A DNA stretch of 62,740 nt, the filler included, from Bonamia ostreae (lineage: Eukaryota): NCBI GenBank assembly GCA_040357525.1. It is 47 parts of 47 records of this genome, joined end to end, with 100 filler letters (N's around TTAATTAATTAA, not from the genome) between each part and the next. Parts side by side here need not be neighbours in the genome. Positions count along the whole stretch, not along the records: positions 25,517 to 26,754 come from JBDODL010002268.1; positions 26,855 to 28,092 come from JBDODL010002269.1; positions 28,193 to 29,429 come from JBDODL010002270.1; positions 29,530 to 30,766 come from JBDODL010002271.1; positions 30,867 to 32,103 come from JBDODL010002272.1; positions 32,204 to 33,439 come from JBDODL010002273.1; positions 33,540 to 34,775 come from JBDODL010002274.1; positions 34,876 to 36,111 come from JBDODL010002275.1; 39 more parts are not named here. One strand, given 5' to 3'. A program made the position numbers and the translations under genes. Of this stretch, positions 25,521-61,413 are shown piece after piece. The notes beneath the pieces are model-generated. The model ran no database searches. It was not told the DNA's origin and saw nothing but the letters and a program-made list of their open reading frames with translations. Position 1 is the first letter of the stretch. Each line of letters starts with the position of its first letter.

Positions 25521-26213
25521 CTACAGCTTCTTAGACTTTTTGGATTTCTGCGATTTGCTGAGCAACGCCTTGTGAATGTGCGGGATGACCCCTCCTCCAG
25601 CTATCGTCGCCTTAATGAGATGGTCGAGCTCTTCATCTCCTCTTATCGCCAACTGCAAATGCCGTGGAGTTATTCTCTTCACCTTCAAATCCTTCGACGC
25701 ATTCCCCGCCAACTCCAACACTTCGGCTGTCAAATATTCCAAAATGGCTGCACAATACACTGAAGCGTTTCCTCCCACCTTTATGTCGCCCATCGCTCTT
25801 CTCTTCAAATTTCTGTGGATTCTTCCTACTGGGAACTTTTTGTCGAAACAATTGGCAAAACAGAAAATTAGATTTTTGCGAATCGATTACTTTTGCACTA
25901 AACTAAAAACTTGCAAACCGGCTCTCATCGAACGCGAAATCGGCGTCTTCTTTCCCTTTCCTTTTCCTCCTTTCGCTTTTCCTTTCCCCTTCCCGGATTT
26001 TCCTTTTCCTCCTGGAACGACCTTCCCAACGCCCGTCGGCAACGAAACTTTGCCTCCGGGCACTACAGATGGCGCGGGCGTTTTGTCAGCAGTTGATTTT
26101 GCGGGCGTTTTGAGACCGGCGCTCGGCGCGGGCATTTTGACGCTCGTTTGAACGGGCATTTTGCCCGCGACAGTAGAAACGGGTATTCCTATTTTGCCTC
26201 CTCCTTTGTCCAT
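25521..26213 (-). CDS. H2A.Z: Histone variant H2A.Z with a long N-terminal tail; exons 26213-25911 and 25835-25521 (75-nt intron)
   Basis: [17 protein letters not shown]...[61 protein letters not shown] is diagnostic of H2A.Z. Confidence 0.96.
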
Positions 26214-26854
26214 GGTTAATTTAAAGTTTAGTCTGTTTAAGCTGTTATTTAGCTATTGGATATATAAAAGGAGTCTAAAAATGGTTTGAATTGTTTATTT
26301 TTTTATTAAAAACGATTATTTTATAAAAAGTAGTTGGGATGCCTAATATTTAAGTTTTTTCTATTTTTAACAGATTTTTTTATTTTTAGCAGATTTTTTT
26401 CTATTTTTATCAAATTTTGTCATTTTTTTATTTTTCTCGTCAAATTAAATTTATATAATTAAATAATCAGATATATTTTTATGAACTGAATTGAAACTTA
26501 ATATATAAAATTTATTATTATATTAATTCATAACAATTTGAACCTAAACCGATTCACGATATTTCATAAACCCGATTCATAAACAATTGCGAAATACCCT
26601 AACCCTAAACCGATTCATAACAATTTAAACCCGAAATTTGTTATAATAAAAATTTAAACCCGAAAATCCAAACCAGCAGTTTTTCGTTGATCAATAAAAA
26701 AAACTGGCGAAGCGGCAATTTTAACCGGTTTATAAATTAAGAAAAATTGAATAANNNNNNNNNNNNNNNNNNNNNNNNNNNNNNNNNNNNNNNNNNNNTT
26801 AATTAATTAANNNNNNNNNNNNNNNNNNNNNNNNNNNNNNNNNNNNNNNNNNNN

Positions 26855-27904
26855 TGTATCAACATTTTTAAAGTATGTTTAATATAAATTTGCATCGAAA
26901 TCAGATTTTGCAATTTGTTGCAAATTATTTCTACAAAAATGAAAATTGAAACGGCGACTGAAATTCCAACGCCTTGTGATAATTTTGTCGTTTCCGACAA
27001 TAAAATCGAATCAATGTTAAATTGCGTGAAAACTGAAAATCTGAAAATTATTAATTTTGGTAAAAATTGTAAAATTATTTCGAACAAAAATTTTGATTAA
27101 AGGAGAAAAATTAATTAACGGTGCATCACAAATGGAAAAAATAGGAAAAAATATTATTTCGATCGGAAAAATTATCGAAGAAATTTGCAAAAATTTGAAT
27201 CAGAATTTAAAAAATGACAAAACTTTAGACAAAAATTTGGAAAACGATAAATTTTCTGAAAAAGACCAAAATTTGAACGAAGACAAATTTTACGAGAAAA
27301 AAGAAAAATCAATTGAAGACATTGAACAAGATTTTTCGGTTTATGAAACAGACAGAAAGTTTGACGAAAACGAAATTTCAGACGAAATAAGATCGAAAAT
27401 CAAACTAAAAGCGATGGAACTTTTAAACAAACAAATTAATTTGAAAAAAATCGCAAATCGGAAAATTAAAAAAGTTAAAACGACTTCGATGGCTCAAGAA
27501 GATCTTACCATTGAAGATCCTCGTTTTTTAATTTCCAATTCTATTTTTCAACAAATTTCAGTTCTATTTTTGACCAACAAACAAAAATATCAATTTTTCA
27601 AAAAGATCTTATTCCTCCAAAAGGAAAAGCGGTTCACAAATGGCTTGAAAGTTGCCCTCAAAGAGTAGTCAGTGCAGAAGACATTGCAAACGCCAAAATT
27701 CGATATCGTTCGGTCCATTCGAATCCAAAAAAAGGACTTGTGAAAGGCAGAATTTACATTTTGTCTGAGCGAACTGACATCAAAAGTACAATAAACGACA
27801 ATTTGGGGAAGCTGTGGGATTTTATAGCTTGCAAGAAACATGCGAATTGTTTTGAAAGAGGGAGAAGTCATCAGCCGATGATAAAATATAAAATACGTGA
27901 ATAA
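26855..27904 (+). CDS. Hypothetical multi-exon protist protein (5'-truncated)
   Basis: Coding-like segments are joined by GT..AAG introns (e.g. about 27523-27605) and end ...PMIKYKIRE*. No family was recognised. Confidence 0.5.
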
Positions 27905-28329
27905 ATTGAATTGAGATTTTTTATTTTTAATCAAATTTGTCACGAAATATATTTATTCAATTTCTCAGCGCATTGATTGACATCATCACCAGAATGAAGA
28001 AGAGCCAAAAATTGACCTTTTTTGTCCATTAAGAACATATAAGTTGAATGGTCAACATTGTAATCATCTTTGTCGTTTTCATCAAATTTACTNNNNNNNN
28101 NNNNNNNNNNNNNNNNNNNNNNNNNNNNNNNNNNNNTTAATTAATTAANNNNNNNNNNNNNNNNNNNNNNNNNNNNNNNNNNNNNNNNNNNNCGGATCCC
28201 CACATAAATCTATATTTCTTATAGCTGATCATGCAAAATGTCTGTATGTTCCTTCTTTGGAATGCTTAAAAAGAAATATCACGGTTTATAAATCTATGGT
28301 ATATGTGAATTAGAAGATATGAGACACCC

Positions 28330-28640
28330 GTCGTGCTGTAACACTAGTGGGCGGGTTGCAGAAGAGATTGGCGGGATTCTCTCTGCAATACGTTCTACAA
28401 ACCCGTGAATGGAATCGAGAAATTTCATCATTTCGAATTTACCATCTACGAACCAGGTGTCATCTTAGCTAAGCAAGCACCTGCTATGAAGCTCCGACTT
28501 CACAGAGACGGGGTAAACATTGATAAAATACTTCGATAACATTTACAGCTGGGCTTTCCGCAGACAGCGTTGCTTCTTCAAGGAGATTAGAACATTCGTA
28601 AACACCTGACAGGGACTTAACTAGTGCAGCTCCATGTGAA
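28330..28640 (+). pseudogene. Decayed transposon-derived coding fragment (host)
   Basis: DWRDS...FYKPVNGIEKFHHFEF...PGVILAK...AGLSAD...FFKEIRTFV with frameshifts. It resembles a recurrent invertebrate transposon-associated domain. Confidence 0.4.
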
Positions 28641-29550
28641 AGCTTTATCATTCGGGTACATACTATCTACAATCTTGAAATCAGAACATGTGCATGTACA
28701 GCATTTTTAACGTTTTAGCATATGGGTTTATTTTCAATAGACATTGGAAATATTTGACAACGAAATTGCGTAATATCATAAACGACGTATTCATACATCA
28801 CTGAAAATAGTTAAACACCAACACCTTTCTTATCATTTCAGAATTTAAAAATTTGATCGCATTTTACCTTGTGAGTTATGAAATATTTACATTCATAACA
28901 CGTAAAAGATGGCATAATGCCGATGTCTTTATTATTTGAAGATTCGCTTTGAATAAAATTTCACCAATATTGCGGGATTTATCTTATCGTCAAAATCTTC
29001 CGTTTTCGCCAATATACCACATTTGACAAAAGTCGGTCATTGTTAGTAATATCGTGACACAAAAGTCGGTCTTTGTCAGTAATATCGTGACACAAAAATC
29101 TACGGCTGCTATAACATCAAGTTTAAAAAAAAATTACTTTTCATATTTATGCAAGAAAGTAAATGAAGTTTAAATCCATCACATAGCCCGCATTTTGGTT
29201 TACATATTTCTATTCATTCAACTCTATATATCCTATGTCTGGAATTCAGGTTTCAAAAACCTTACACCAATTAGCGCGTATGGAATTTGGCTCATTCAGA
29301 GCATAATAGTATGCTCTACTTGGTGTAATTATGATTTAGCACTTCTTCTAGGTGCCATCATGGACAAATATATTTTTATCAACGATCTAATACACGACCT
29401 AATACATGCTTCCCTGCCAGGGCAATACCNNNNNNNNNNNNNNNNNNNNNNNNNNNNNNNNNNNNNNNNNNNNTTAATTAATTAANNNNNNNNNNNNNNN
29501 NNNNNNNNNNNNNNNNNNNNNNNNNNNNNCAATTTTTAATCGTAAAAAAT

Positions 29551-30596
29551 TTACTTCGACGAATTTCCGATCCCCTTTTCATTCTCATCGCAAAATGTGT
29601 CCCATTCAATTTTCTTTTTTCTATCCTTTTCTTCTTCACTTGACGACATATCGCTTTCAGTCATGTCGCTGTTTTTATTATTGGCAACAGGATTCATATC
29701 ATGACAAGAATGATCAAAATCAGTTCTCAATTTGGTCGGCGGATTAAAACTTCTAAAAATGTGAGTTTTATCAGTCATTTTCAAAATTTTCTTCTCGATG
29801 TTTGTCGACTTTTCTAATTTTTGTCGATATTCTTTCAAATTTTTATATTCGATGGGTTCACTCAAATCGTTTTGAATATGAAAGATTTTTCCATTTTTAG
29901 CAAAATTTTTTCGATCAAAATTATTTTTAAAATTGGTCTGGCCTAAATTGTTTTGACTAAATTTAAGAGCGAATGGCTGTTCTTTTTTTAATCTTTTGAT
30001 TTGGCAAAATGAATTTTCGATTGAATATTCTATTTTTTTGAGGTAAAAATCTCTTTTGGTTTCTTCGTTTTGGCTAAATTGCGAATTTTTATTTTCCTTT
30101 ATTTGTTAAAAAAATTTTAATTTTGTAAATTGTAAACAGTCAAATAATCTCTTAAAATTCTCAATTTTTTAGTTTGCGCAATCAATTTTTCCCTCGAAAT
30201 ATTAATTTCCGATTTTTCTTCAAATTCGTTGACAATTTTTTCTGAAATTAAATTGAACTCTTCACAGAAATGCAAAAAATCGAACAGATATTCCAAAGCG
30301 ATTTGAATATGAGCACTTCTCTCATTTGTAACAGTGATCTTGGAATACAGAAGAGCCAAATAATATTTGCAGAGAATTATGGGCAAATGATTTGTGGAAA
30401 TATCGTCTATTTCTTCGTTTTTGGAGAACAAAAAAAGTTTTTCAAATTTATTGTGACAGTTTTTTAGATCGAAAATCATTTCTTTTACATTTTCGGGATT
30501 TGACTTTTTTGTTAAAATTTGAGTTGAAATTTGAAATTTTACCTCGTTTTTATCAATCTTTTCTGTAATTTTTGTATATTTTTCAAGATTTTCCAT
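29551..30596 (-). CDS. TAP42: TAP42/alpha4 (IGBP1)-like PP2A regulator, multi-exon
   Basis: LFSKNEEIDDISTNHLPIILCKYYLA, SREKLIA and the C-terminal KKIEWDTFCDENEKGIGN all match TAP42 motifs. Confidence 0.82.
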
Positions 30597-31322
30597 TCTT
30601 TAAAACTGCTTATTAAAATAATCTGTTATATGAAAAATTTAATTTTTTCTAAATTTTTTTATTTTTCTACTTTTCGTTGTCTCCCGAAGGAAGGAGGCGG
30701 TAATTTTAAAAATTGAGAATTAATGTTTTTAAAAATGGATTGAAGGTCATATTTGTGCAGGATTTCNNNNNNNNNNNNNNNNNNNNNNNNNNNNNNNNNN
30801 NNNNNNNNNNTTAATTAATTAANNNNNNNNNNNNNNNNNNNNNNNNNNNNNNNNNNNNNNNNNNNNAGCAGTCAAAAAATTAAAGAATCACCAAATTTCA
30901 CTTTTGAAAACGAAACATTAGTTCCGCCACAATAAATTTTTCGCAAGCAATCGATTAAAATATCTACAAATAAAATGACCATCAATTTTCATTAAAAGTT
31001 TCCAAGCCATGCAACCTCCAAAAATGATCATTTGCCATTTTTTCATGTTGTTACAAATAATTAAAACGTCAAAAATAAAATGTTTTTAGCAATTTAAATA
31101 AGATCGAGGTTGTTTTCTGCCGGAATTGAATAAAGGAAGTTGGAAATACGACTTTAGTAACAGAGAATTTTATTTGACATGCGGCACCAAAACATACAAA
31201 GATACCGTCCTGAATTGTAACTTTGACGAAGATACAAAGATGTACAGCATAAATGTAGACGGCATCGTACATTGCCCCTCAAAAAATTAAATTCAAAAAT
31301 AAATTTAAAATTCCAAAAATAT

Positions 31323-31574
31323 TTATTTCTTTTTGCGTTTTGGCTTTTGCTTTTGCTTTTCGATTGACCCCGTTTGCCAAATCAAATCGTTTTTCCTGTA
31401 AAACGGCCAATTCGGCACACAAACGACTACGGACAATAAATAGCCAGCCGTTGTTATATAAAGAAACATGACCATTTCTTGGCGCACATAACCGACAACA
31501 AATCCAATAAATCCAAAAATCGATATGCAGAATTTGTAAAACCACATCATTTTTTTCTGCACACGAAGATCCAT
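31323..31574 (-). CDS. SPCS1: Signal peptidase complex subunit 1 (SPC12)
   Basis: MDLRVQK, two TM helices and the VCVPNWPFYRKNDLIW motif. Confidence 0.88.
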   Translation of the reverse strand: MDLRVQKKMMWFYKFCISIFGFIGFVVGYVRQEMVMFLYITTAGYLLSVVVCVPNWPFYRKNDLIWQTGSIEKQKQKPKRKKK

Positions 31575-31867
31575 TTTAGCTTTCTTTCGATTTATTTTAT
31601 GTTTTGTGATATAATAATTAAAGCTGGTAATAATTGAAATGGTGTTAATGATTAAATAATAATAATTAAAATGGTAATGAAAATTGTAGTTTGAATTTAT
31701 TCCGTTTTCTTTTTAGAAGTAATCGAAAAGACGTAAATTCCGATATGTTCAGCAATTTCGTTTACAACCAAATAAGCGTAAATAAGCGAATATGAAACAT
31801 TGAACATAAAAAGAACCAAAAGTAACATTTCAAAAGTTATTTTTTCTCTTATAAAATTTGCCTGACT

Positions 31868-32103
31868 AAATGAACTTTAATTTTATGTTTAAAAATTTTG
31901 GTTTCTTTTTGCAAAATAAAAATGGCTTTTACAAAATGAACTTTAATTTTTTGTTTAAAAATTTTGGTTTGTTTTCGCAAATTAAAAATGGCTTTTACAA
32001 AATGAACTTTAATTTTTTGTTTAAAAATTTTGGTTTGTTTTCGCAAATTAAAAATGGCTTTTACAAAATGAACTTTAATTTTTTGTTTAAAAATTTTGGT
32101 TTG
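31868..32103. repeat. 66-bp tandem repeat, about 3.5 copies, running into the contig end
   Basis: Unit aaaatgaactttaattttttgtttaaaaattttggtttgttttcgcaaattaaaaatggcttttac. Confidence 0.92.
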
Positions 32104-32203
32104 NNNNNNNNNNNNNNNNNNNNNNNNNNNNNNNNNNNNNNNNNNNNTTAATTAATTAANNNNNNNNNNNNNNNNNNNNNNNNNNNNNNNNNNNNNNNNN
32201 NNN

Positions 32204-32640
32204 GATTGTTACCGATAAAAACATCCGTAATAGTTGATTCGGGATGGCCCGGCGTAAAACTTTCGATACTTCGAAATTCTCGTAGATCCTCCAGAGATAC
32301 CTTGAAACCGAAGAGATGCAACAGAGAATACAACAAAGCACTCGAATGTCCATTGGACAACACAAATCGATCTCTGTCGACCCATTTCGAATCGACATTT
32401 GATATTTTGAGAAATTTGGAGAATAGCACATGCGCGGTCGGAGCCATTCCGAGCGCCGATCCTTTAAAATTAAAATTTCGGTTTCAAAATTTAATCGATC
32501 TTTTTTACTGACAACAACGAACCGAAATGACCAGAACCGGCATTGCAAATTATATCGGCGCACAAACTCCGAAGAGAATGGGTGCATTTTTCGTCCAAAT
32601 CGTCTTTTGCCGAGTAAACAGGTTTCGTGTTTTTAGACAT
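32204..32640 (-). CDS. TKT: Transketolase, N-terminal part (intron about 32462-32522)
   Basis: [25 protein letters not shown]...[11 protein letters not shown]...LYSLLHL...[13 protein letters not shown]. Confidence 0.93.
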
Positions 32641-32761
32641 TGCACGAATTTCTGATGAAGCTTTTTCTAAATATCAAGCTTTATTGAGTTTCGTTAAACA
32701 AAGTTAGTTTGCGATTTTATATAGAACAATTTAATATAAAATGAGAATTTTTGAGCTTAAA

Positions 32762-33046: not shown

Positions 33047-33167
33047 ATTTGCCATTTTCCAAACTTTTTAATTAGCAATCTTTAATAATAAACAAAATAA
33101 ACTCAAATGATAACTTTTTTGTATTTCTAATATATACAAGATCTTTAATATCAACAAAAATAGACAA

Positions 33168-33439
33168 ATGACAGAAGAAGATATAGAATACTCTACTAAG
33201 TACACAGACAACAAATATGAATACAGGTGATTTGCGATTTTTAAACAAAAAAGACACGTTATTCTTCCAAAAGAAATGGCCAAAAACATTGCCAAAGACA
33301 AATTGTTGTCAGAAGAAGAATGGAGAGGAATTGGAGTACAGCAAAGCAGAGGATGGGTTAATTACATGCGGCACAGTCCAGAACCTCATATTTTATTATT
33401 TCGAAGACCGTTAGGAACCGATCCTGAAACAGGTCTTGT
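33168..33439 (+). CDS. CKS1: Cyclin-dependent kinase regulatory subunit Cks1; 27-nt intron at 33227-33253; 3'-truncated
   Basis: [21 protein letters not shown]...[36 protein letters not shown]. Confidence 0.96.
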
Positions 33440-33655
33440 NNNNNNNNNNNNNNNNNNNNNNNNNNNNNNNNNNNNNNNNNNNNTTAATTAATTAANNNNN
33501 NNNNNNNNNNNNNNNNNNNNNNNNNNNNNNNNNNNNNNNAATTTTTGCAATTATTCGCGACATTTTAATAAAAAAACAACAATAATTTTTGCATTTAGTT
33601 GCGACATTTTAATAAAAACAACAACAATTTTTGTAAATTTATTCAAAAAACAAAG

Positions 33656-34319
33656 CCAACCGGCGTCGACGAAAGAGACCAACAACTACAAGAAATAACA
33701 CTCGCCATCGACGGATTGTTAAAAAGAGTAGAAGATTTGGCGGAAGATGGATTAGTCGACGAATCCAGAGAGTTGCTGGCTCAGATCGACTAACTGAACG
33801 CCGAAAAAAGAAAACTTTTGTCTGACGTCACTTCTCTCCGCGTCGAAGCCGAAACTCGCGACAGAAAACTGACCGTCTGCGAAATCTGCGGGGCTTTTCT
33901 GGTCGGAGATGACATGTCTGCTCGACTCGAAAGCCACATCGAAGGCAGACAGCACAACGGATTTATCATGGTGCGCCAAAAAATAGATGAACTTGAGGTA
34001 CTCGAAAAAGCCAAATTTTGAAAAAAAATCCAAAAATAAAAAAATTTTAAAATATCAAATTTCAGAAAATTTTGTCGTGTTTAAAAAGCCAAATTTCCCA
34101 ATAAAAAGTAAAAAAAATTAGAATATGAAATTAGAAGAAGTGAAATCAGTATCGGTGACGCCGCCGCCATCAAGCTCGAGGTCAAAATCAGTGGAAAGAC
34201 GGCGGAGAAGAGATCGATCTCGAAGCCGCAATAGAAGACGTTCTTCGAGGCACTCTTCGAAACATTCTTCGCGGCACCGTCGTTCCAGGAGAAGTCGGAG
34301 TCGCCATAGAAGACGATGA
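33656..34319 (+). CDS. LUC7: U1 snRNP-associated splicing factor LUC7-like (3' part), with an in-frame TAA at 33791-33793; intron 33998-34121
   Basis: EDLAEDGLVDES...RKLTVCEICGAFL...RLESHIEGRQHNGFIMVRQKIDEL (second zinc finger), followed by an RS tail. Confidence 0.88.
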
Positions 34320-34775: not shown

Positions 34776-36438
34776 NNNNNNNNNNNNNNNNNNNNNNNNN
34801 NNNNNNNNNNNNNNNNNNNTTAATTAATTAANNNNNNNNNNNNNNNNNNNNNNNNNNNNNNNNNNNNNNNNNNNNAAGATATGAATACTTTTGAGTTCTA
34901 CTTTTATTTTTAAACATGAATCTCTAATTTTTTGGAGGGATGATGAATCTAGTCCTTGTTTGTATTACGAAACGTAATACAAACAAACAATAAATTCATA
35001 CTGAGACGATGTTAGTTGAAATATAGGCTGAAAATTAAGGTGTCCTTTTTCAATAGTAAACACGTGATGCGTAATATAAATCACCGATGAATTATTAAAT
35101 GTGTATGTGTGCTTTTGCGATAATCATTATCTGATCTTGAAATGTAAAGAAAACAAATTACCTTTACCGATTGTGTTATCGGGGTTTTGTGTTTTGATTG
35201 ATATTGTATTGTTGACATTTTCGTAGATGTATTTGTAGAACAAATTATCTATTTTGTGTAAAAGGTTTATATATTCTCCACTACCGAAAAGGTATACATA
35301 AATTCGAAAAGATGAAAATAGCATGCATCTTTAAAACCATTTTCCTTTACAGATAGTTCAGTCAAACGTCGAACGGCTGTCCAGATATTGGTGAGTGCAT
35401 TTGGGATGAATCACAGGAAGGTACTGTCCTTAACTGTATTTTGTCCAGTAACGAGTAATATAGACTCGACAACTCGTTAACTAGCAACACTCCTACCATG
35501 CCGCTCACAAGTTTTTGTTGAGTGTATCAACTGGATATACAATATACCTGGAATACGCANNNNNNNNNNTTAAACCAAGTTGAACTGTGCTTGTTTTAAA
35601 GACATCGCTTGAATTTGACAGCATTTTTCTCAACTTAGAAGGATAAAGCTATCACCTTTCCATTTATAAGCATCTTAGTTAACTTTGAAAGCAGAAAAAA
35701 ACTTGTGTTTTATACCTTTCTTACCTTTTGCAGCACCAGTGACAACTGTCTACACATTACTGTTTCCTATTACAAATAGAATTGAGAAATTGTTCAAATT
35801 GATAAGTGAAACAGCAAACCGACTTACATTTCTAATTTTTTACAGCGTTCGCATTTCCAATATTCCTGACATTCATCTTAAAATAGATTTAAAATAAACA
35901 ACTTAAATAATATCATATTAAAAGATAACAATATTGTTTTCAATCCATGTGTAAAGGTATATGTGGCTATGCCCAAAAAAGACAAAATGATGATTTCAGC
36001 GCAAATTTATTTTTCAACACTTCTTTTTTTATCTTCCATCGGCAGAGAAACCTCGAATCTAGAAGTATGTTTGACGAAGAACATGAGGCCAGCCTTGTTA
36101 TAGAAAATGAGNNNNNNNNNNNNNNNNNNNNNNNNNNNNNNNNNNNNNNNNNNNNTTAATTAATTAANNNNNNNNNNNNNNNNNNNNNNNNNNNNNNNNN
36201 NNNNNNNNNNNTGAAAGATACAAATGAGAAAAACAATAAAGATCAATGAAGCTAAATAAATCATCATAAAATATTTCAAATATCGTTTTTGGTTTGTTCG
36301 TTTATATAAAGTAATAAATGTTAACAGTAAATAAATCAACAAAATTAAATAGTTTAAATAAATTTGTTACAAACCAAAAACTTTGAATAAATAAGCGACT
36401 TAAAAGGTAATAAAAACAAATATTTTTAACAAACCAAA

Positions 36439-40217: not shown

Positions 40218-41422
40218 ATAATGTTTCCATTTATTTTCGACATCGGACCGCGCTTCGAGAACAAAACTTTCCAATTCGTTTTTCAGTTCTTCGATTCGAT
40301 CATATTTTTTGTCAAAGTCGCTCATCTCTTTTTCTTTCAACATTGCTTCTTCAACAAATTTTAAAGGGACATATCCTTCATTTGTAACAAAGTTTATTTT
40401 TGTTTTTTTCTCTTTCTTCACTTTTTTGTTTTCTTTGTTGTCGTCGTCATTCAAATCTTTTTTGTTCTCTTTGAGATCTTTGTTTTCTTTTTCTTTGTTG
40501 TCAACAGCGATTTCTTCGTGCAGGAAAACGCTTCTAATGGCGATGAGACCGTCGAATGTCAAAGCGATTTTTACGTTGATGTAATTGTCTGTGACGTTTT
40601 TTGTTGTTGTCTTTGGCGGGTTTATTGTGCAGTTTGAAATAAATGTGTTTGTTCCCGGTGGCAGTTCTTCGGGATTGGCGTAGCTTTTTTTTGTCGATTT
40701 TTGCGAATTGTTTTGAAAACGATTTTTTTTAATTTTGTCGATTTTTGTGAATTGTTTTGAAAACGGTTTTTTTTAAATTTTGTTGATTTTTTGTGAAACG
40801 CCAAAAAACTTGAAAACGACTTGGAAAGGATCAGTTTTTCGGAAAGTGAGCAGTTTGGCTGAAGGAATGGCACTGAAACTCTTAAAAAGAACTAATCGCT
40901 TTTCAAGTTCAAAATTGCCTTTTTCGTCAATATTTCCCCACGCGATTTCTATTGAATAAGGAAATGTGTCGATCACTTTATATTCTCTTGCTCTAAACAT
41001 CGGAGAATTTATTGCACACTTTTTATTTTTTTTAATTTTAGTTCATTTTGACTAATTTTTTTTTAAATTTAAGCTCGTTCGACTAATTTTTTGCAGAACT
41101 TAAAAACTTTGTAAGTGCTTCCAATCGCAATTGATTCGTCTCCGTCACAAGTTTCGGAAATTTCTCGCCCTAAAAATCTTTTTAGTGTTGATTTGACCAA
41201 TGGAATTCGAGAACTTCCTCCAATAATTTCCAGTGAATGAAGTTGATTTTTTTCGATATTCGCCATTTTCAAAACTTAAAATTTGCAAATTTTAAAAAAT
41301 GGTATTTTAAAATATTAAATTTTATTAAAACGTTCTTCAGAAAAATATTCTATTTCGTCCATTTTGCTTTTAATAGAATTTTCGTATTCGTTTTTGGAAA
41401 TGTTTATCGACAAGTCAATTTC
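40218..41422 (-). CDS. HSP110/Sse1-type Hsp70 family chaperone, internal multi-exon fragment
   Basis: LEIIGGSSRIPLVK, DESIAIG, CAINSPMFRAREYKVIDTFPYSI, IPSAKLLTF and EKEMSDFD...KNELESFVLEAR. Confidence 0.9.
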
Positions 41423-44316: not shown

Positions 44317-44996
44317 ATGGGTTCCCTTTTATCCAACATATTTAAATATTTTCAATCCGACAAAGATGTCCGTGTTCTTATTTTGGGCTTAGACAATGCC
44401 GGAAAAACAACAGTTTACACTTTGAAAAAATTAGATATTATATAAACTGAAAACACCAGAAGCCAGCACGAAGATACATGAACCGACGATTGGTTTCAAT
44501 GTAGAAACGTTGTCTTACAAAAGCATAAGTTTCCGCGTTTGGGATTTGGGAGGGCAAACGAACATTCGTCCTTATTGGAAGTTTTAAATTCCATAGCAAG
44601 ATGTTATTTCCAAGACGCGATTGCTGTTATTTTCGTTGTAGATTCGACCGACGTCGAAAGATTGGATTTGGCTCGACAAGAGCTTCTTTCGGTTGTGTCG
44701 GAAGAGGAAATGGCGAACATTCATCTTTTGGTTTTCGCGAATAAACAAGATATGGAGACTTCCATTTCGGAAGAAAAGGTTCATTTTAAGTATTTGTTTG
44801 GAATTAAAGATTTGATTTTGTTGAAAATTTTTCTGCTTTTAAAAATTTATTTAAAAATTTCTGTTTTTTTAAGGTGGCGGAAGGTTTAGGATTGTCGAAA
44901 TTGAAAAACGACAAATGCAAAATATTTAAAACTTCGGCTACAAAAGGTGAAGGGTTGAAAGAAGGATTTGATTGGCTGATTAAGCAGATAAAATAG
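44317..44996 (+). CDS. ARL1: ADP-ribosylation factor-like GTPase (Arl1-like), complete; introns 44413-44434 (22 nt), 44581-44600 (20 nt) and 44779-44873 (95 nt)
   Basis: MG...[17 protein letters not shown]...PTIGFNVE...[17 protein letters not shown]...FANKQD...[14 protein letters not shown]. Confidence 0.92.
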
Positions 44997-47102: not shown

Positions 47103-47983
47103 TCAATAATACAAGAACAAATCTTTGATAGTTAACTCTTCCTCCCCATTATAAATCTTCCCGAGAACCAAAACAGAGATGAACAACAGAATCAAATGAG
47201 CGTTCTCGACATGGCTCATCATGGTCACCAGCAGATACGCTTCAATCGGCATGAGCAAAAGCAACTTGGCGCTATCGTCAAAGTTATTTGCCAACACTGT
47301 TATCACAGAAGCAATCGAAAAAATGTGCGCGAACCTGATGCAGTAGTTCAACACTTCGCTCTTGATACATTTCTCCACCTTGTTTGCTACGGCAGACAAA
47401 TATTTGAGAATAAAGAGCGCCATCAACAAAACGGCTTAAAAATAGAATTGAAAACATGAAAATATCACGAAGAATTTGTAATGCAGATCTTTGCTCAAAA
47501 CACACTTTATTATTTCCACGGGCAAACTTAAAACGAGAAGGGAAGTCATCATCGCGATTTTGACAGGTTTCTCTTTAGGCGAATTCTAAAAATGGCTAAT
47601 GGAACCTGCTTGGGATGGAACGCAAAGTTGATCAACACAATCAAAGCAGGACTAAGAGCGTAGAAGCACAAGATGACTTTTCGAAGCGTTTCGTCTATCG
47701 CCGTGTGTTCGAACGCCACGTAAAAAACGGGGAGAGAAGTTATGACGAAGCAGTTGGTCGCGATTTGCAGGAAGAGGAAGTTGTTGTTTTCAAGGTTTCC
47801 TGCTTTGTGGCCTTTGGTGTAGATCCCGTAGATGTAGATTAGAAAGTAAGCGGTGAGGATTAAGATGGAGAGAAAGGTAACAGGAGGAGTAACGAGGATT
47901 AGAGGGCCCATTGCGACAAGATTTATCATAAAAATGGAAAAGATCGTAAATTCCCAATGGTCCGTTAGAAAATAAGTGAGCAT
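47103..47983 (-). CDS. Multi-pass membrane protein (about 279 aa) assembled across two tiny introns, 47586-47605 (20 nt) and 47435-47455 (21 nt)
   Basis: Removing GTTCCATTAGCCATTTTTAG and GTTTTCAATTCTATTTTTAAG fuses two ORFs into one stop-free hydrophobic frame (378+130+332 nt). Confidence 0.7.
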
Positions 47984-48228: not shown

Positions 48229-49446
48229 TTAAAATTTAAACAGAAACTTGGCTTCAGAAGAAAATCCGTAATCGTTGTGGACTTCTTCTTCACACGGCGG
48301 TTTATCGAAGTCCACGTACGACCTCCTCTTGAAACGAACTCCGCGACGGCTATTAAATCGAGAGCCGCGACGTCCATTGAACCCATTTCTCGAATTTCTG
48401 TGTCGAGAATTCTCGTTTCTGGAATATCGAGACGATGTGTCGCCGGGTATTAAAGATTCGACCTTTTCAAGTTGGAAATGATCTTTGTCGTTCATGAAAT
48501 TTTGGAAAAAATCGTTTTGCTCTTCCTTCGAAAGGAAAGTTTTAGCAGCTTCGGCGTGTCGTTTGGTGATGTGTTGGTTGAGGAACTTTTGCAAAACAAA
48601 CATTTTCTTGCACAATTTACATTGCCATCTCACGTCGCTTTTTCTTTCGGTGTTTTCTTCCAAAAAAGTGTTCTTTTTTCTAATTTTGTAAATTTATTTT
48701 GAGCCGATTTTGCAATTTTTTGTAATTTTGAAAAATTGTTTGTTTTTACAAAACTGATTTAAAAATCTATTTTAAATCGCTTTATTAAAAATCGCAAAAT
48801 TAAAATTTTCTGCAATTTGGAAAATCGCTTTAAAACAAAAAAATGGACCTTTCAACCCATTCGGCAATTCCGAGAGAATGGTCGTTTTGCAAAATTTGGT
48901 CTATTTTTTTGTCCAAATCTTCTCGCCATTTTTTATAATCTTCGTCTGCGTCGTTTTCAGAATTGTCGAATCGACGTCTTTTCGAAAAATCTGATTGATT
49001 TATTATTGTTTCGCGCGGATGTCTTTTGGCGCATCTGCTCATTAGCCTTTCCTCCGATTGGTAATCTGTCCCGCAGTAATAACAAAAAAAGTGAACGTTT
49101 TGGAGATAAAAAATGAGTAAATTCAGTTTTGCAATTTTCTTTTATTAATTTTTAGTCATTTTTTTGTCAATTTTTAAATTGAGAAGAATCGCTAATTTGC
49201 GAATTAAAGACAACCGTATCACAATTCGACAATATTTCTTCGGTAAAGTTTTTTTCGATTTGTTTGCGTTTATTAAGGACTGTTATAAGCTTAAATATTA
49301 TTATTTTTTACTTTTTTGGCTTGTTCAATGTCGAAACCTACTCTGTTTTCGACGAGAGAATAAAAATTTGCCGGTTTTATTGATTTTGACGATTTTTTCT
49401 TCGGTAAAATATGCAAATAAAGCGGAGTATATTCTTCAGAATATTC
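48229..49446 (-). CDS. SRRT: ARS2/SERRATE-like RNA effector, C-terminal multi-exon fragment; 22-nt intron at 49290-49311
   Basis: FDIEQAKK|LITVLNKR, FCYYCGTDY...RC, the zinc finger WQCKLCKKMF...HITKRH, FFQNFMND and the C-terminal YVDFDKP. Confidence 0.75.
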
Positions 49447-53439: not shown

Positions 53440-56400
53440 NNNNNNNNNNNNNNNNNNNNNNNNNNNNNNNNNNNNNNNNNNNNTTAATTAATTAANNNNN
53501 NNNNNNNNNNNNNNNNNNNNNNNNNNNNNNNNNNNNNNNTTGCTTCACACGACAAGTAAGGGGCACTGGGGACCTATTCTAACCCGGGTTCCACCGGAAT
53601 CATTACTTAAAAAAATTGCTAGGAATATCAATTGCATGCATTTATTAGTTATTGCAATCATTCTTCTTAAAAAGCAAAAACAAATCAAATCATATAAATT
53701 CTCATTTGTCAAAATTGAAAGATGGACAACTGCATATATTCCAGACGCGCAAGTCATGGATATCACAGTGTCCAGACATGCAACTCCTTGAGCTAGATTA
53801 AAACAATACTTCTAGAAACAGCCCAGAATTATATTTCACAATAACATCTGCAATGTGTTCTCTTTGTTTAGACATAAAACATTGTGAAACTTCATATTTG
53901 AGTTAACTCTCACTTATTGATTGATAAGTGATAATCATTATGAATGAAATGTGAAGTAAATTGCGTCAACTGTTGATAATGACAAAACGTCAACCTGTAT
54001 GAGAGTCCATTCTATATTTACAAAGAAAGTTTCGCATGAAAATGAATACCTTTCTCTTTCAGCATAGAAATTAATAGGTTTTTCTCAGCAATATCCTTCT
54101 TTAGTTTTTCGACTGTTTCCCTTGAAGTGTAAAATTTTTCTACAACCAGTTTACTTCTTCTAAGACAATCTTTCTGATTTGCTAGTTCCTCTTGAATCAT
54201 TTTAATTTCAGCTTCTGAAAAAAATGCGAATGTATGATAAATAAATCGAAGAAATAAATAAATGATAAAAGTGAAAACTTTAATATTGATATTATTTCTT
54301 CTTGAAAAAAAAGCTGAGTATCTTTTGAAAGACTTGCATATGTGATAACGTTTTGTTTTCCTCCTGTGAAACTCAAATTTTAAAGCTTTTTTTTTTAGAA
54401 AGACCAAATCTTCTACATTTATGGAAGCAATTGTATTGAATATTAAGTCATGCTCATCACCACATATTTTAGTGAGAGGACACAAATCAAATTAGATAAC
54501 AAGCTGATGCTACTAAATACACTGTAGTGTTGATAGTTGTTTGTTGGCATTATCACAATAAGACATAAATGACCTAGCTATAACTTTGTAGTCATTCCCA
54601 TTACACTAGAGGCTAGGGACAGACACGTAACATCATTTCTTTTACGAAGTGTGTATGTAAGGGGTGTGTAAAATGATTGTCTGTTTAGTCTTTACAAACA
54701 AATGACAAAAGTTTATATTTCAGTTCAATTCATGGGTTCAGTTTTGTATACCAACCCATAAACGCCATTNNNNNNNNNNNNNNNNNNNNNNNNNNNNNNN
54801 NNNNNNNNNNNNNTTAATTAATTAANNNNNNNNNNNNNNNNNNNNNNNNNNNNNNNNNNNNNNNNNNNNAATTAAAAGAAAAGATTTCTAAGGGAGAAAA
54901 AAAAAATGGGGGAAAATTCATATTTCCTTTACATGCATTTTTCATTTTAAACCTATAATTTAGTGTCTACAATGTTGAAATCAACCTTCAGAAATGGTAT
55001 GTAGTTTCCAAATCTACAACCACTATTGTAATGAATTCTGGCTTTGAAGTCCTTCAAGGCAAACCTTCCCCTAAGATATATTTAGATAAGTTAAAATCTT
55101 CAGATAAGTTTACAATAGTATTTTAGGGACACTTCGGCATTGAAGTCGAAATTCAAGTAAACCGACAAAAAGTAGGGGACTGTTTTTGAAAATCTGTGGT
55201 ATATAAACATGGTCATTACTTGTCAGTGAGCCACACAACTGTCAGTATATGATGTGAATATGTTTGCAATCATTTCAATCCGTCTCACGCCACACTCTTA
55301 TATTTTATTTCGTATTTTCAATACCTTTCCATATCCTAAATAACCATGTGTACTTTTTCCTTTAATAATTTGGCTTAAATGCATATCCATGTTTTATTTA
55401 AAAGGCATTATAAGAGAATGTAGATTGTATGCAAACGTATAAAAAGTAGATCATACAAAAATACTTCACATTCCCGCTCAACATTAACATTTACAATACT
55501 TTTAAGGAAATGAACCACCGCTTTTGATATCATATATCCGAATTTATTATCGTAATATGAACACATCTCTCATTATATACTAGTAGTCTATTACAATGTA
55601 ATTTCCCGTAAAAATTGAAATCCAGAAATTGTACATTTCTGTTTCATGCTTTTTGTTTCCGGGAACCAGTAACCATGTAACACTTACTGCAAAAGACACC
55701 TCAATTTTGAATGCCGTATCCAAATTAAAGACTTGTGAATTCTGGCAATCGAACAGTTACTACCTGATTTATTGACCTATATGTAGCACTATCTATGCAC
55801 GCTCTTCTTTGGATTTCCATCTTTATAATTCAAATATATGTAAATGTATCATGCATCACTGACATGTTCTATTGTTGCCAGAAATGTCTTGTAGAATAAA
55901 TGTATATCAAGCAGGAAGTTAATCCGAAAGTATTTAAGACCGGACATGCCATTACAAAAATGAAAGAGAATGTAGAGTTCAAAGCGTAAACAATACATAC
56001 ATGTCTCATACTGGTATATCATTGTGGGAAATGAATAACAATATAAATGTGCAGTTATTGACAGAGGACTGTTGTACTTCCTATATTTTCTTGTTTAGNN
56101 NNNNNNNNNNNNNNNNNNNNNNNNNNNNNNNNNNNNNNNNNNTTAATTAATTAANNNNNNNNNNNNNNNNNNNNNNNNNNNNNNNNNNNNNNNNNNNNGC
56201 TTTAGCGATTTCATTCATTTCGATTGGGGTTCTAATCATAATGATCACCACAAAAATGATAACTATGTTCTTTAGTGAATTTAGAAATAAATCGCCGATT
56301 AAGCTTACAATCAAAAATATTTCACCTTTTGTATTTTTAAATATCGGAAAAATATTTTTGATAACTTTAATATTTAATAAATTTTTAAATACAATATTTT

Positions 56401-57589
56401 CGAATTTAAATTTTAGAAAAAATCGAAAAGTTTAAAAACGGCTGGGCTCGAACTGTTTTATCAAAAGACCATATCCAAATCCAAGAACACTGGCTAATAA
56501 AGTCAATTGAGAGTTTGGGCGAGTGGCCAAAAATTTTAGAATTTTGTTCATTTCTTAAAATTATATTTTGTGTTTTTGCAAATTGATTTTTCTTATCGCG
56601 TTTTCGAATCAAAAATCCCAAAATTTCGCAAATTTAATATTTGAGCAATAATTTCAATAAAAATAATTTTATTCCTACAACGACAAATCTTCTAAAATGA
56701 AGCGTCGCCCTTTAAAATAGGAATTTAAAAGTAAAAATTTATCGAAGCAATTTTCAACCAATATTTTTGGCGATAAATTTGTAACAACCATTTTTTGTGA
56801 ATTATAATAAATTAAAACACAAAAATTTAATATTCTTCACATCCCAAACAAATCTATTTAAAAATCGAAAAAACTTGCGAGTTTTGCGTTGAAAATAAAG
56901 TTCTTTAAGAAAAATGTCATCGCAATCTTCAAAAGCAAAGCGAAAATCAACGCAATCGCTGAACCAAAAATCGAATTTTTTGTAAAAACTTATTTTTACG
57001 TTTACACAAATTAATAAAACTGAAAATCGCCACGAAATTAGAGCTCAAGTTAAACAAATCGAACAAATAGACAAAATTAAAATTGTATTGCCAAATAAAA
57101 GTTAGGAGAGCTAACAAGCGCCCGAAATTTGACAGCAAAAGCGACAATAGTAAATATTTTGCGCTAAAGGTTAAGTGAAAACGATTTGTAGCAATTGTTG
57201 CTACGCCACGGAATATACTTTGACGCGAAGAGAACTCCTGAAAACAGAAGAAAACAGTTTAAAAGAGAAACTAAAAACAAGACGAACAAGTCTATTAAAC
57301 TCCATTCTTTAATTCCGGTTAATTTGGATAGTCTGACATATTTGAGGTGTAAGAAAATTAAGAAAATTTGAATTTAAGTCTAAACGTCTAAACGTCTATA
57401 TTTGATTAAAGGATATAAGCATCGAAANNNNNNNNNNNNNNNNNNNNNNNNNNNNNNNNNNNNNNNNNNNNTTAATTAATTAANNNNNNNNNNNNNNNNN
57501 NNNNNNNNNNNNNNNNNNNNNNNNNNNTTAAACTTTTTTGCGTTTTTCTGTCCTTGTGCTTTTTTGCTTTGCAAAAACTTTGATAAAAG

Positions 57590-58750
57590 CAAAGAACGAT
57601 GTTGCTGGACTGGACATTTGATCCAGACGAAAACATCTTCAATCCGCTCATCGACTCTCCGACCGAATTTGTGCAAGTTCACGGCGACTCGTTCGTCCAT
57701 TCGATCCATTTCGGAAAATCTTCCGCTTATCAAATCAACCTCTCTAAAAGCGTTTTCGAAGAAGGAATAGTGCAAAAGGACCTGAAAAAATCAATCGATT
57801 CCTTTCTCAACAACGGTTTCCATATTTTGAGCTGTCTTCACAAAATCAAAATAAACAAACTATTGTTACCAGAAATGTCCGACAAGCTTACAAAATGGCT
57901 CAAGAATACTATTAGCGCGGAGAATTGCCGAGTTTACAGATTGCCGTTCGGTTCGTTCAAAGCACCAGAAGAAAGCGAACCGATCACGATGAACGAGTTG
58001 AAAGAGCTGCTCCGTTTGCAAAACAGCCAAACGGCTCTGTCGCCGACCGTGATCGACGCCGACATTTCATTCTATCCCGACAGAATAGTGGCGGGCGCGC
58101 TCTTTAAGAGCCGGGAACCGTTTTGCTCTCGCTTCGAGCAAAATGTCGCCCCGAACTGCGTCGATCTGTTCCAAAGCATGCGCTATTTGGAACATCTCGC
58201 AGACAATTTGGGTTCAAAAAATGGCGAGAAAACAAGCTTAAACGAAATAAAACTGCGAGAAAAAGCTTTCGATTTGAAGAAAAATTTGTTGAAAGCGAAA
58301 GAATGGACGAAAAAGCAATCTCAAATGCTGAACGAAATATCGACTTTGTCTCTTCCGGACGCTTCGAACGTCTTTGAGGGAATGGACGAGGAAGCCGAAA
58401 ACGGCAATTTGATCGAAAAGAATAAAAGTTATAACCGAAAAACAGAAGATATGGAGAAAATGAGCTTTTATAAAATAGATAAGTCCGAAAAAAAGATAAA
58501 AGATATAAAAATGGCGACTGAGAATATGGTGTCAGTGAATAAAGTGGATTATAAGACGATTGTTTGGCTTTGCATAGAATTGACGAGAGCGTTAGAAAAG
58601 TATTCTTCTCAAACGATCGATAGTTCGAGCGAAATTCCCAAATTTGTTGTTTTTGCGTCTTTTAATAAAAACGTTCCGACTTTGTTGTCGAATGAAAGTC
58701 ATTTTGGGGATTTTGGGCCAGGTTTGCGATTATTTTGTGAATATTTGTGA
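57590..58750 (+). CDS. Hypothetical protist protein, long exon
   Basis: 383-codon ORF with coding-like composition. No family was recognised. Confidence 0.65.
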   Translation, partial: QRTMLLDWTFDPDENIFNPLIDSPTEFVQVHGDSFVHSIHFGKSSAYQINLSKSVFEEGIVQKDLKKSIDSFLNNGFHILSCLHKIKINKLLLPEMSDKLTKWLKNTISAENCRVYRLPFGSFKAPEESEPITMNELKELLRLQNSQTALSPTVIDADISFYPDRIVAGALFKSREPFCSRFEQNVAPNCVDLFQSMRYLEHLADNLGSKNGEKTSLNEIKLREKAFDLKKNLLKAKEWTKKQSQMLNEISTLSLPDASNVFEGMDEEAENGNLIEKNKSYNRKTEDMEKMSFYKIDKSEKKIKDIKMATENMVSVNKVDYKTIVWLCIELTRALEKYSSQTIDSSSEIPKFVVFASFNKNVPTLLSNESHFGDFGPGLRLFCEYL

Positions 58751-58995
58751 TTTTTTNNNNNNNNNNNNNNNNNNNNNNNNNNNNNNNNNNNNNNNNNNNN
58801 TTAATTAATTAANNNNNNNNNNNNNNNNNNNNNNNNNNNNNNNNNNNNNNNNNNNNTAAATTCTTATAAAATTTTTTTCGTTCTTTATTTTTAAAATTTT
58901 TATTTTTATGAATTTTTTTCGTTCTTTATCGCTATTTTTTCTATTTTTAAAAATTTGTTGAAAAGTGCTTTGAAGAACTAGAAATAAGCTCTGAG

Positions 58996-60085
58996 ATGGC
59001 ATCGATTTCTTCTTTTAAGAAAAAAGCTAATGGATATGTTGTAAAATTGGATTCTTTGACAGATTCGAGTTTTGAAACCAGTATTCTCTTCACGGAATAT
59101 TCCATTCCAACGAACAAATTAAAAATCTACAATTTAGCAAAATCTTTGCGAAACGAACAAAATGCCACAAAACCTCAAATCCAAGACATTTTCTCGAAAA
59201 AATTGGAAAAAATCTTAACCGATTTCGATCAAAATTTAGGCGATCCAAATTTAGAGAATCGAAAATTGGTCAAAAATGAAACAAAAACAGTTTTGAAAAC
59301 GGTCTTAGACAAATTGAGTGAAGGTTTTTCTATCATCGAAACAATGACGATTGATAAACCGATTTTGCAATTCATTCAAACAATTTCCGAAACAACCGAT
59401 AAACAAATTTTCGGAATTTTGAAAAACTTTTTAAGCTCAAATCTTCCGTTTTATTTGACCAAAAACGAAAATGAATTGAACGCGATGAACGAATACAGAA
59501 ACAAGTTAAAAAGGGAATTTGTTGAAGCGAAACAAACGAAAAACGTGAAAAAAGCTCTCGCTGCGAAAGAGGGCGGACAGGAAACTTGTAAAAAAATGAT
59601 GAAACAGAACAGAATCGTCGCAGAAAAACTTCGTAATTCGAAGGAACGAATCGAATTGAGAGGCCTTTTTAACAAATTGGTCAAATTTGACGAGAAAAGA
59701 TTTGATTGTGAGAAAACGGAAAAAGCGGGAGAAAGTGATATTGAGAACTTGAAGAGATCGTTCAAAGATTTGGTTGGAAAGTCCAATTTGAGAATTAGTG
59801 ATTTAAAGTTTTTTGTTTACAATTTTTTGCATTTTTTTATAATTGCTATTTTGACTAAATTTTCGATAAAATTTAATGAAGAGCTGAAAACAAAATAAAA
59901 ATGGGATTGATTAAAAAATTGCCACCGAAATCAATGTTAACGATTGAAGAATCGATAAAATTGGAATTGGATAGAATGAATAACGTTTTTGAAAACAAAA
60001 TCGGCATTATTTCGAATCAGAAAGAAATTGATTCAGAAGAAGACAAAAAATTGTTTTTTTACAAATGGAAATTGACAATAAAAAA
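58996..60085 (+). CDS. Hypothetical helical/coiled-coil protist protein (probably spliced near 59808)
   Basis: 300-codon ORF followed by a second coding-like segment. No family was recognised. Confidence 0.55.
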
Positions 60086-60681
60086 NNNNNNNNNNNNNNN
60101 NNNNNNNNNNNNNNNNNNNNNNNNNNNNNTTAATTAATTAANNNNNNNNNNNNNNNNNNNNNNNNNNNNNNNNNNNNNNNNNNNNATTTTTTTTTCCATT
60201 TCTTTTCAAAATTTTTATAAAATTTTAAGATTTTGATTCACGTCCATTTTATAGTTTTCATCCATTATTTTTTTGAATTCAAAAATTACATTTAAATAAC
60301 GATATTTGCATTTAATTGTTTGATATAATAATCGCAACAGATTTCAAATAATAATTTTCCGACATTTTCTGGATTCACAAAATCTTTAAATTTATAAAGA
60401 CAAATATAAACAATAAAATAACCGCAGAAAAATTTGATGTCTTAAAAATAATTTTTATTCTATTTTATCATTTTTTGAAAACTGTTCAGTTCTTTTTGCG
60501 ATCTGAGTTGTTGCAGTTAAATATTGTTACCAAAAAAAATCTTTGTTACAGCAAAATATGTTTTTGAAAAGAAATATTTTGTTACGAAAAGAAATTACTT
60601 CAAAGTCAAATTTTCAACGGAAATTCGCTTACAATAAATTAATAATTTTGCAGAACTTTGAAATTTTAAACGAGAAAAAAT

Positions 60682-61413
60682 TTATTTATCAACGTCACAA
60701 AAAGAAAAATTAGCAAAGTGTGCAAAATAGCCTTTTGCGCTCATTTTAGATTCAGCCAACGACTCTTCCGTGAACTCTCTATAAAAATTTGAAGTGTCGT
60801 CTTTTTCCGAACCCATTTTCGGTTTGTACGGCGGCGAAATCTTCCGCATCAACAATCGGTACCAATCGACTCCTTCAAAGAATTTGTGGCTCATTATTTC
60901 TGAACAGTCGCTTGGACCGCTTCCGAGGCGCTTCGAAGGATCTTTTTCGAGCAGTTTCGTGATTAAATCGACTGCGCTTTTGGACATTTTTGGAGGGAAT
61001 TCGACTTTTTTGTCTATAATTTGTCTTTCGATTTGATTGCGGCCGACGCTTTTGAAAGGCGATTTGCCGACCATCAATTCGTAGAGAAGGACGCCGAGAG
61101 TCCACCAGTCGATGGTGTGAGTGTATTCTTTGCCTTCTATCATCTCAGGCGCTTTTTGGAAACGAAAATTTTTATTTTCGAAAATTTAAAATTGGAAATT
61201 TTTGATAGAAACCGAGATATTCAGCGGTACCGCAAATGGACTTTGCGCAGGTCTCGCCTTTTCTGAAAATTTTGGACATTCCGAAATCGGTGAGACAAAT
61301 ATGTCCATTTTCGTCGAACAAGACATTTTCCGGTTTCAAGTCTCTGTAGATAATGCCGTTTTTGTGGAGATGTCCCAAGGCCATTACTATTTCTGCTATT
61401 ATGAACTCTTTTT
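60682..61413 (-). CDS. AGC-family Ser/Thr kinase (Akt/SGK/S6K-like), C-terminal half; intron 61152-61212
   Basis: [38 protein letters not shown] and the hydrophobic motif FANFSF. Confidence 0.93.

Follow-up and report, generated by a model that had tools for sequence, protein, structure and literature searches.

GUUU donors and bare AG acceptors of short, AT-rich introns in genes of Bonamia ostreae

The window analysed here is a stretch of 62,740 b (∼30% GC) from the genome of Bonamia ostreae (Haplosporida, Rhizaria; assembly GCA_040357525.1), and the subject of the analysis is the introns of its protein-coding genes, which carry a U-rich donor and a bare AG acceptor. The window is composed of 47 pieces of 1227–1246 b, ordered from longest to shortest. 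It contains 94 N runs; 46 identical spacers of the form N44+TTAATTAATTAA+N44 (e.g. 1247–1346 and 33440–33539) lie between the pieces, and two extra 10-N runs (4528–4537 and 35560–35569) look like scaffold gaps. Genes are cut at the piece borders and readings across the spacers are meaningless. The range 25836–61212, in which the original prediction described atypical splice signals, covers 27 of the 47 separate contigs and is not one locus. The genes placed by Pfam profiles in stop-to-stop open reading frames (ORFs) were a DEAD-box helicase, H2A.Z, TAP42, SPC12, transketolase (TKT), CKS1, LUC7, HSP110/Sse1, ARL1, ARS2, Arv1 and an AGC kinase. When 108 short ORFs (22–54 amino acids) were compared with Pfam, two ARL1 exons were the only matches.

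A curated set of 18 GT..AG introns of 19–126 nucleotides (nt) was obtained (Table 1). Residue-level homology fixes 12 of them, hereafter the strong set, in each of which removal of the segment restores the reading frame and the collinearity with homologues; one of these 12 is also covered by an RNA-Seq contig. For the other six, located in TAP42, a membrane-protein gene (two introns), ARS2 and a gene on contig 21 (two introns), the evidence is reading-frame continuity alone. GT..AG was assumed when the boundaries were set, and the finding that 18/18 introns are GT..AG is therefore partly by construction. An ab initio spliced-ORF dynamic programme (codon log-odds, GT..AG only), which proposed 30 introns, was used only as a source of candidates; it matched six of the 12 homology-fixed introns exactly and also called a false 39-nt intron in LUC7. 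The intron lengths (19, 20, 20, 21, 22, 22, 27, 41, 43, 57, 61, 61, 75, 89, 95, 107, 124 and 126 nt; median ∼50) fall into two size classes, tiny introns of 19–27 nt (7/18) and mid-size introns of 41–126 nt (11/18), with a single weak set of splice signals common to both. The A+T content of the introns is 76–90%.

Table 1. Positions, splice-site sequences and support of the introns placed in the window. Positions count along the whole window.
Gene and intron	Position	Strand	Length (nt)	Donor..acceptor	Remarks
DEAD-box helicase	757..775	+	19	GTTTCC..CTTAG	contig of 52% GC
H2A.Z	25836..25910	-	75	GTTTTT..CGACAAAAAG	
Contig-21 gene, intron 1	27060..27102	+	43	GTAAAA..GATTAAAG	frame continuity only; moderate support
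Contig-21 gene, intron 2	27523..27629	+	about 83-107	GTTTTT donor	frame continuity only
TAP42	30097..30137	-	41	GTTTAC..CAAATAAAG	moderate support
TKT	32462..32522	-	61	GTTCGT..TTTTAAAG	
CKS1	33227..33253	+	27	GTGATT..AAACAAAAAAG	
LUC7, 3' part of intron	33540..33655	+		acceptor AAACAAAG, ending 33655	3' part only, cut by contig end
LUC7, last intron	33998..34121	+	124	GTACTC..AAAATTAG	
HSP110/Sse1, intron 3	40684..40809	-	126	GTTTTT..ACAAAAAAAAG	
HSP110/Sse1, intron 2	41019..41107	-	89	GTTTTT..AAATAAAAAG	
HSP110/Sse1, intron 1	41275..41331	-	57	GTTTTA..AATTTTAAG	
ARL1, intron 1	44413..44434	+	22	GTTTAC..AAAATTAG	joins GKTT to ILYKL
ARL1, intron 2	44581..44600	+	20	GTTTTA..ATAGCAAG	joins IRPYW to KCYF; split Lys codon
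ARL1, intron 3	44779..44873	+	95	GTTCAT..TTTTTTTAAG	
Membrane-protein gene	47435..47455	-	21	GTTTTC..TTTTTAAG	takes out in-frame TAA, joins long ORFs; moderate support
Membrane-protein gene	47586..47605	-	20	GTTCCA..TTTTTAG	moderate support
ARS2/SRRT	49290..49311	-	22	GTAAAA..ATTTAAG	frame continuity only; moderate support
AGC kinase	61152..61212	-	61	GTTTCT..TTCCAAAAAG	

The homology evidence was examined gene by gene. Removal of the DEAD-box helicase intron rebuilds VLDEADEMLSRGF, and the Pfam DEAD profile passes from positions 2–126 in the upstream ORF to positions 127–164 in the downstream ORF. At 52% GC, the contig of this eIF4A-like gene (contig 1, 1–1246) differs from the ∼30% seen elsewhere, although the 19-nt intron and its flanks are AT-rich. 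Near 1150, shortly before the contig becomes AT-rich, there is another probable donor, GTACAT. In H2A.Z, the tail of exon 1 corresponds to residues 2–36 of the PDB chain 9k3z_C and the first residue of exon 2 to residue 37, which the Pfam Histone profile places at its position 56. In a comparison of the AGC-kinase exons with RSK2 (3g51_A), residue 193 was the last one matched by the upstream exon and residue 195 the first one matched by the downstream exon, with the split codon G/CG supplying Ala194; the Pfam Pkinase profile crosses this junction between positions 164 and 165. The second residue of TKT exon 2 aligns to residue 34 of yeast transketolase and the split codon supplies Gly; TKT exon 1 alone gave 0 matches against PDB. 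For CKS1, the Pfam CKS profile starts on the first residue of exon 2, at profile position 16.

All three curated junctions of HSP110/Sse1 are those of the NCBI model P0024 ('adenyl-nucleotide exchange factor sse1, partial'). Intron 1 is the sole GT..AG pair that links both frames, and its junction in P0024 is identical. At the junctions of intron 2 (GSTYK/CAINSPMFRAREYK) and intron 3 (FQVVFN/YANPEELPP), P0024 is gapless against yeast Sse1 (2qxl_A). We also observed an internal duplication in the 126-nt intron 3, consisting of two copies of ...TCGTTTTCAAAACAATTC.CAAAAATCGACAAAA....

LUC7 is conserved, with its zinc-finger region and 1030 relatives at E ≤ 0.001. Similarity to P0026, a 65%-identical relative, begins exactly at the first residue past the AG at 33655 (query 1 = residue 118), and the spliced product is gapless against the same relative across the last-intron junction. 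An in-frame TAA is present in the conserved coding region at 33791–33793 (+), at Pfam profile column 160; the aligned residue is Ser in P0026, and relatives further removed have Q, A, L, K or other residues there. As the other genes of the window end on TAA, TAG or TGA in the expected manner, an assembly error, an allele or read-through is more likely here than a change of the genetic code. The 39-nt segment GTTGCT..GAAAAAAG around this TAA was rejected as an intron, given that the Pfam profile runs from 159 to 161 across the stop, that P0026 is collinear there, and that the alignment score is 499 with the segment and 432 once it is removed.

The three-intron model of ARL1 (180 amino acids) showed no gap at any junction against the homologues P0002 and P0008, and the NCBI B. 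ostreae 'Arf GTPase arl1' model P0001 (173 amino acids) has the same junctions for introns 1 and 2. For intron 3, an RNA-Seq contig of run X2 (235 nt, 0 mismatches) joins 44775 to 44871 and omits 95 nt; this skip equals the curated intron after a +3 shift, GT..AG being found within a 5-base ambiguity. No read contig bridged the 22-nt or the 20-nt intron on this contig (contig 34), a coverage gap which proves nothing. The model P0001 additionally removes an in-frame 21-nt segment, GTTGTC..ATAAG at 44509–44529 (+), encoding LSYKSIS. This segment is kept in homologues as LNYKNIK, and two 112-nt contigs of run X1 (44473–44580) pass through it unspliced, so the 21-nt intron of the NCBI model is probably a false call. 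The match of both X1 contigs breaks off exactly at 44580, where the exon is predicted to end, leaving four unplaced letters in each; this is a weak hint of splicing at most, and that X1 represents RNA is a guess. Run X1 further contained two variants of ARL1 exon 2 at approximately equal depth, 44503 A>C (synonymous) and 44523 G>A (Ser to Asn, the residue of the ARL1 homologues), which suggests two alleles or close paralogues.

The quality of the assembly is poor, with contigs of ∼1.2 kb in the window and a published N50 of 1417 bp (PMC11069148). Together with the false intron probably contained in the NCBI ARL1 model and the in-frame TAA of LUC7, this would suit an explanation in which the segments are assembly frameshifts or annotation artefacts of a highly fragmented draft genome. 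We find that explanation barely credible, as all 18 segments are GT..AG and 19–126 nt long, their removal restores gapless alignment to distant homologues at 12 junctions, the 95-nt ARL1 segment is missing from an RNA contig, and the segments are AT-rich even in a GC-rich gene. The segments are, in our judgement, probably genuine GT-AG spliceosomal introns of B. ostreae; this judgement is a joint one and extends to the reading of the splice signals and to the mechanism described below.

At the 5' splice site, GTT was found in 10/12 introns of the strong set and 14/18 of all introns, and GTTT in 8/12 and 11/18, respectively. The base at +3 was T in 14/18 introns and A in 3/18. A G at +5 occurred once (1/12 strong, 1/18 all), GTRAGT was absent from both sets (0/12, 0/18), as was GTTTGT from all introns (0/18), and the exon positions −3 to −1 near the donor displayed little consensus, with G at −1 in 7/18. 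The departure from GTRAGT reported in the original prediction is thus confirmed; nine of the ten donor hexamers it listed occur in the curated set, in which GTAAAT was not found.

A simpler account of these donors is that only GT and AG are read, and that GTTT, AAG and the A runs are AT-rich background with no special splice code. The A+T richness of the introns favours such an account, and the ultrashort introns of myxozoans and Dicyema are reported to retain only 'GTa' and 'AG' (PMC13644364). The AT-matched background consisted of GT or AG sites with 20 flanking bases at GC ≤ 0.25. The frequency of GTT at GT sites was 0.389 in the whole stretch (both strands) and 0.477 in AT-matched sequence, and that of GTTT was 0.174 and 0.252; in AT-matched sequence, therefore, T comes next at 48% of the GT sites, and A likewise stands before 48% of the AG sites, which also speaks for background. 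Against it, GTT exceeded the AT-matched frequency in both sets (P = 0.013 strong, P = 0.009 all), and GTTT reached 2.4–2.6 times that frequency (P = 0.003 strong, P = 0.001 all). The bias is also not just a matter of local composition, because the 19-nt GTTTCC intron sits in a gene of 52% GC. This demonstrates that the donor signal is real and exceeds local base composition; the information of the 5' splice site lies in GU and the two U residues that follow it at +3 and +4 (GUUU), and +5 shows no G consensus.

At the 3' splice site, AAG was observed in 9/12 introns of the strong set and 14/18 of all introns, TAG in 3/12 and 4/18, and CAG or GAG in none (0/12, 0/18). All eight acceptors named in the original prediction are present in the sequence; seven of them are fixed by homology (CKS1 33253, H2A.Z 25836, kinase 61152, HSP110 40684, LUC7 33655, TKT 32462 and ARL1 44600), and that of TAP42 (30097) is placed by frame only. 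The background frequencies at AG sites were 0.389 for AAG and 0.211 for TAG in the whole stretch (both strands), and 0.479 and 0.272 in AT-matched sequence. The lack of C and G at −3 departs from the AT-matched expectation (P = 0.03 strong, P = 0.006 all). Within the last 18 intron bases, the pyrimidine content was ∼0.47 on average, the same as background, with no enrichment. The A content at −7 to −3 was mildly high relative to the expectation from each intron's own composition, obtained by shuffling its interior, both in the strong set (35/60 vs 27.0 expected, P = 0.018) and in the full set (48/90 vs 39.2 expected, P = 0.024), which again argues against a background-only account. The 3' splice site in this sample is AG after A or U, never after C or G.

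The choice of the AG was also analysed. No internal AG is present in 10/18 introns, and at least 33 AG-free bases precede the 3' splice site in nine of the 11 introns of at least 41 nt. In two introns where homology fixes the choice, an upstream AG is passed over: a TAG 4 nt upstream is skipped for CAAG in ARL1 intron 2, and an AAAAAG 13 nt upstream is skipped for TTAG in the last LUC7 intron. These skipped sites are consistent with a minimum distance rule together with a branch site no more than roughly twelve bases from the AG. Words resembling yUnAy are too frequent in AT-rich sequence to inform on the branch point.

The 5' end of standard U1 small nuclear RNA (snRNA) is ACUUACCU, and LUC7 is a partner of the U1 small nuclear ribonucleoprotein (snRNP). 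A standard U1 would be expected to pair with little beyond +1 and +2 of GUUUUN, and therefore either U1 would have changed, as in Entamoeba, or pairing would matter little. In the mechanism we propose, the U1 snRNP would read GUUU through such a changed 5' end or with hardly any base pairing. The 3' site would be the first AG past an AG-free, A/U-rich stretch that also contains the branch adenosine, and it would be chosen without pyrimidine-tract reading of the U2AF65 type. The U1 snRNP itself is likely kept in Bonamia, since its partner LUC7 is encoded and conserved here, and the presence of LUC7 argues against outright loss of the particle. The original prediction had suggested that U1/U6 pairing and U2AF recognition are relaxed or rewired in this lineage, which may be the case.

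An Rfam search of the window returned 0 matches, snRNAs included, both at the gathering score and at E ≤ 1, and Pfam scans detected no U2AF or SF1 gene on these contigs. The empty snRNA search would also agree with a reduced spliceosome that recognises the 5' site without U1 base pairing, as in the related mikrocytids, members of the same class (Ascetosporea) for which 17–19 spliceosomal proteins and only U2, U4 and U6 have been described (PMC10245619). We regard a reduction of this kind as decidedly unlikely in Bonamia. LUC7 is encoded here in conserved form, zinc-finger region included; mikrocytid introns are uniform, but those of Bonamia differ from one another in length and sequence; and the 62 kb analysed, all in short contigs, would be far from sufficient to show that U1 is absent.

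Several observations weigh against the combination of genuine introns, GUUU donors, bare AG acceptors and an altered recognition mechanism. The sample is small, comprising 18 introns of which six have no homology support, and leans towards conserved genes; RNA supports 1/18, reads having been compared on one contig (contig 34). The genome paper calls the introns of B. ostreae 'canonical' (PMC11069148). AAG is marginal against the AT-matched frequency in the strong set (P = 0.055; P = 0.010 for all introns), and the ratio of A to T at −3 does not significantly exceed that of the AT-rich background (P = 0.31 and 0.16), a result which weakens AAG as a signal and favours the background-only account. 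Runs of 5–7 T/C bases occur in the last 18 bases of 9/18 introns, and runs of 7 in three of the 18 (ARL1 intron 3, TAP42 and contig-21 intron 2), so that some introns may carry a weak pyrimidine signal. The depletion of AG within the introns (16 observed vs 26.3 expected) is matched or exceeded by the depletion of CT and AC, and it was accordingly rejected as evidence for AG scanning, being unspecific. Finally, every step of the mechanism is inferred.

The AAG appearance of the acceptors can thus mostly be understood as AT-rich, TA-poor composition once no pyrimidine is demanded at −3. The description of A-rich AAG acceptors without a polypyrimidine tract, given in the original prediction, holds in that no pyrimidine enrichment was detected; AAG is largely a product of composition, and some introns have T runs before the AG. 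The same prediction had named AT content as a possible explanation of the entire bias. AT content explains most of the AAG preference, and the donor GTTT exceeds the AT-matched frequency. An account by background alone is, on this evidence, unlikely, and we retain the reading of GUUU as a donor signal paired with an AG that follows A or U.

For some of the six introns placed by frame continuity, alternative boundaries exist. In the contig-21 gene, the acceptor of intron 2 is ambiguous between 27605 (CAAAAAG) and 27629 (GAAAAG), both of which keep the frame. In TAP42, a single GT lies ahead of the stop and the Pfam TAP42 profile covers positions 23–160 upstream and 175–233 downstream; an alternative intron of 68 nt likewise keeps the frame. 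The 20-nt intron of the membrane-protein gene links a 164-codon ORF to the next frame, and a 35-nt alternative exists. The homologue search with ARS2 returned only a 124-amino-acid ORF fragment from the same contig, and the ARS2 region 48680–48848 (−) contains at least two more introns, with GTCCAT or GTTGAA as candidate donors and TTAG or AAAAAG as candidate acceptors. Elsewhere in the window, contig 32 (41552–42785), viewed on the minus strand only, has no convincing coding frame on that strand, unlike most contigs, and AT-rich tandem repeats are located at two contig ends (31852–32103 and 34560–34775).

Comparison with known systems places these introns among several unusual ones. In Entamoeba, the 5' splice sites read GUUUGU(U) and U1 has co-evolved with them, being described as 5'-AACAAAC-3' for GUUUGUU (Roy and Bowser, bioRxiv 10.1101/2022.06.08.495308). 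Judged from the account given there, Entamoeba and Bonamia have in common a U in place of RA at both +3 and +4, short AT-rich introns, donors to which standard U1 pairing is not possible and, presumably in the case of Bonamia, a branch region near the 3' end. They differ at the following positions, since G at +5 and U at +6 are found in 88–90% of Entamoeba introns, whereas in Bonamia +5 G is seen in 1/18 and +5/+6 are variable. Entamoeba is moreover described as intron-poor, with very strict signals and an identified U1, and Bonamia introns reach down to 19 nt.

The mikrocytids Mikrocytos mackini and Paramikrocytos canceri are, like Bonamia, parasites of marine invertebrates with extremely short introns (PMC10245619). 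Their introns are few (224) and are given as all 16 or 17 nt long and highly conserved in sequence (PMC10245619), unlike the Bonamia introns of 19–126 nt with a weak consensus and no conserved interior. Among animals, myxobolid myxozoans and Dicyema japonicum are reported with a 'GTa' 5' site and median lengths of 22–27 nt (PMC13644364), in contrast to the +3 T (14/18, with A in 3/18) and the median of ∼50 nt in Bonamia. The agreement with these animals, as far as that report describes them, is limited to the bare-AG 3' site and weak A residues upstream (PMC13644364). Tiny GT-AG introns, too short to accommodate a pyrimidine tract, are also known from the chlorarachniophyte nucleomorph (18–21 nt) and from heterotrich ciliates (15–16 nt), as cited in PMC10245619; these have narrow length windows, unlike Bonamia.

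For B. ostreae itself, the genome paper gives 33.3% GC and 2 introns per mRNA (PMC11069148). In the open-access literature searched, no description of splice signals of this kind was found for Bonamia or the haplosporids, and the words 'intron' and 'splic' are absent from the B. ostreae transcriptome paper. Among the known unusual splicing systems, the GUUU donor with a bare AG acceptor is a variant of which little has been described.

A wider proposal, which we offer tentatively, is that Bonamia (Haplosporida) might be another lineage in which the 5' site has independently been transformed, to GUUU, without being intron-poor and with introns from 19 to >120 nt. An A-rich U1 5' end would have co-evolved to GUUUU, or the choice of the 5' site would have shifted to U6/U5/Prp8, and the 3' sites would be selected without tract reading of the U2AF65 type. 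Taken as a whole, this combination seems possible rather than probable to us. If true, it would undo the coupling that has been reported between massive loss of introns and splice signals that are transformed and strict. The evolution of splice signals is usually argued from a few lineages, namely yeasts, Giardia, Trichomonas, Entamoeba and mikrocytids, to which Bonamia would add U-rich donors, bare AG acceptors and 19-nt introns beside ordinary-sized ones. A direct test of the co-evolution of U1 and the donor is possible because the assembly and RNA-seq data are already public. For B. ostreae, a notifiable oyster pathogen, the practical meaning is that standard gene finders and aligners, with minimum introns of 20–30 nt and GTRAGT/YAG models, will mis-annotate its genes, as exemplified by the public ARL1 model with its probably false 21-nt intron.

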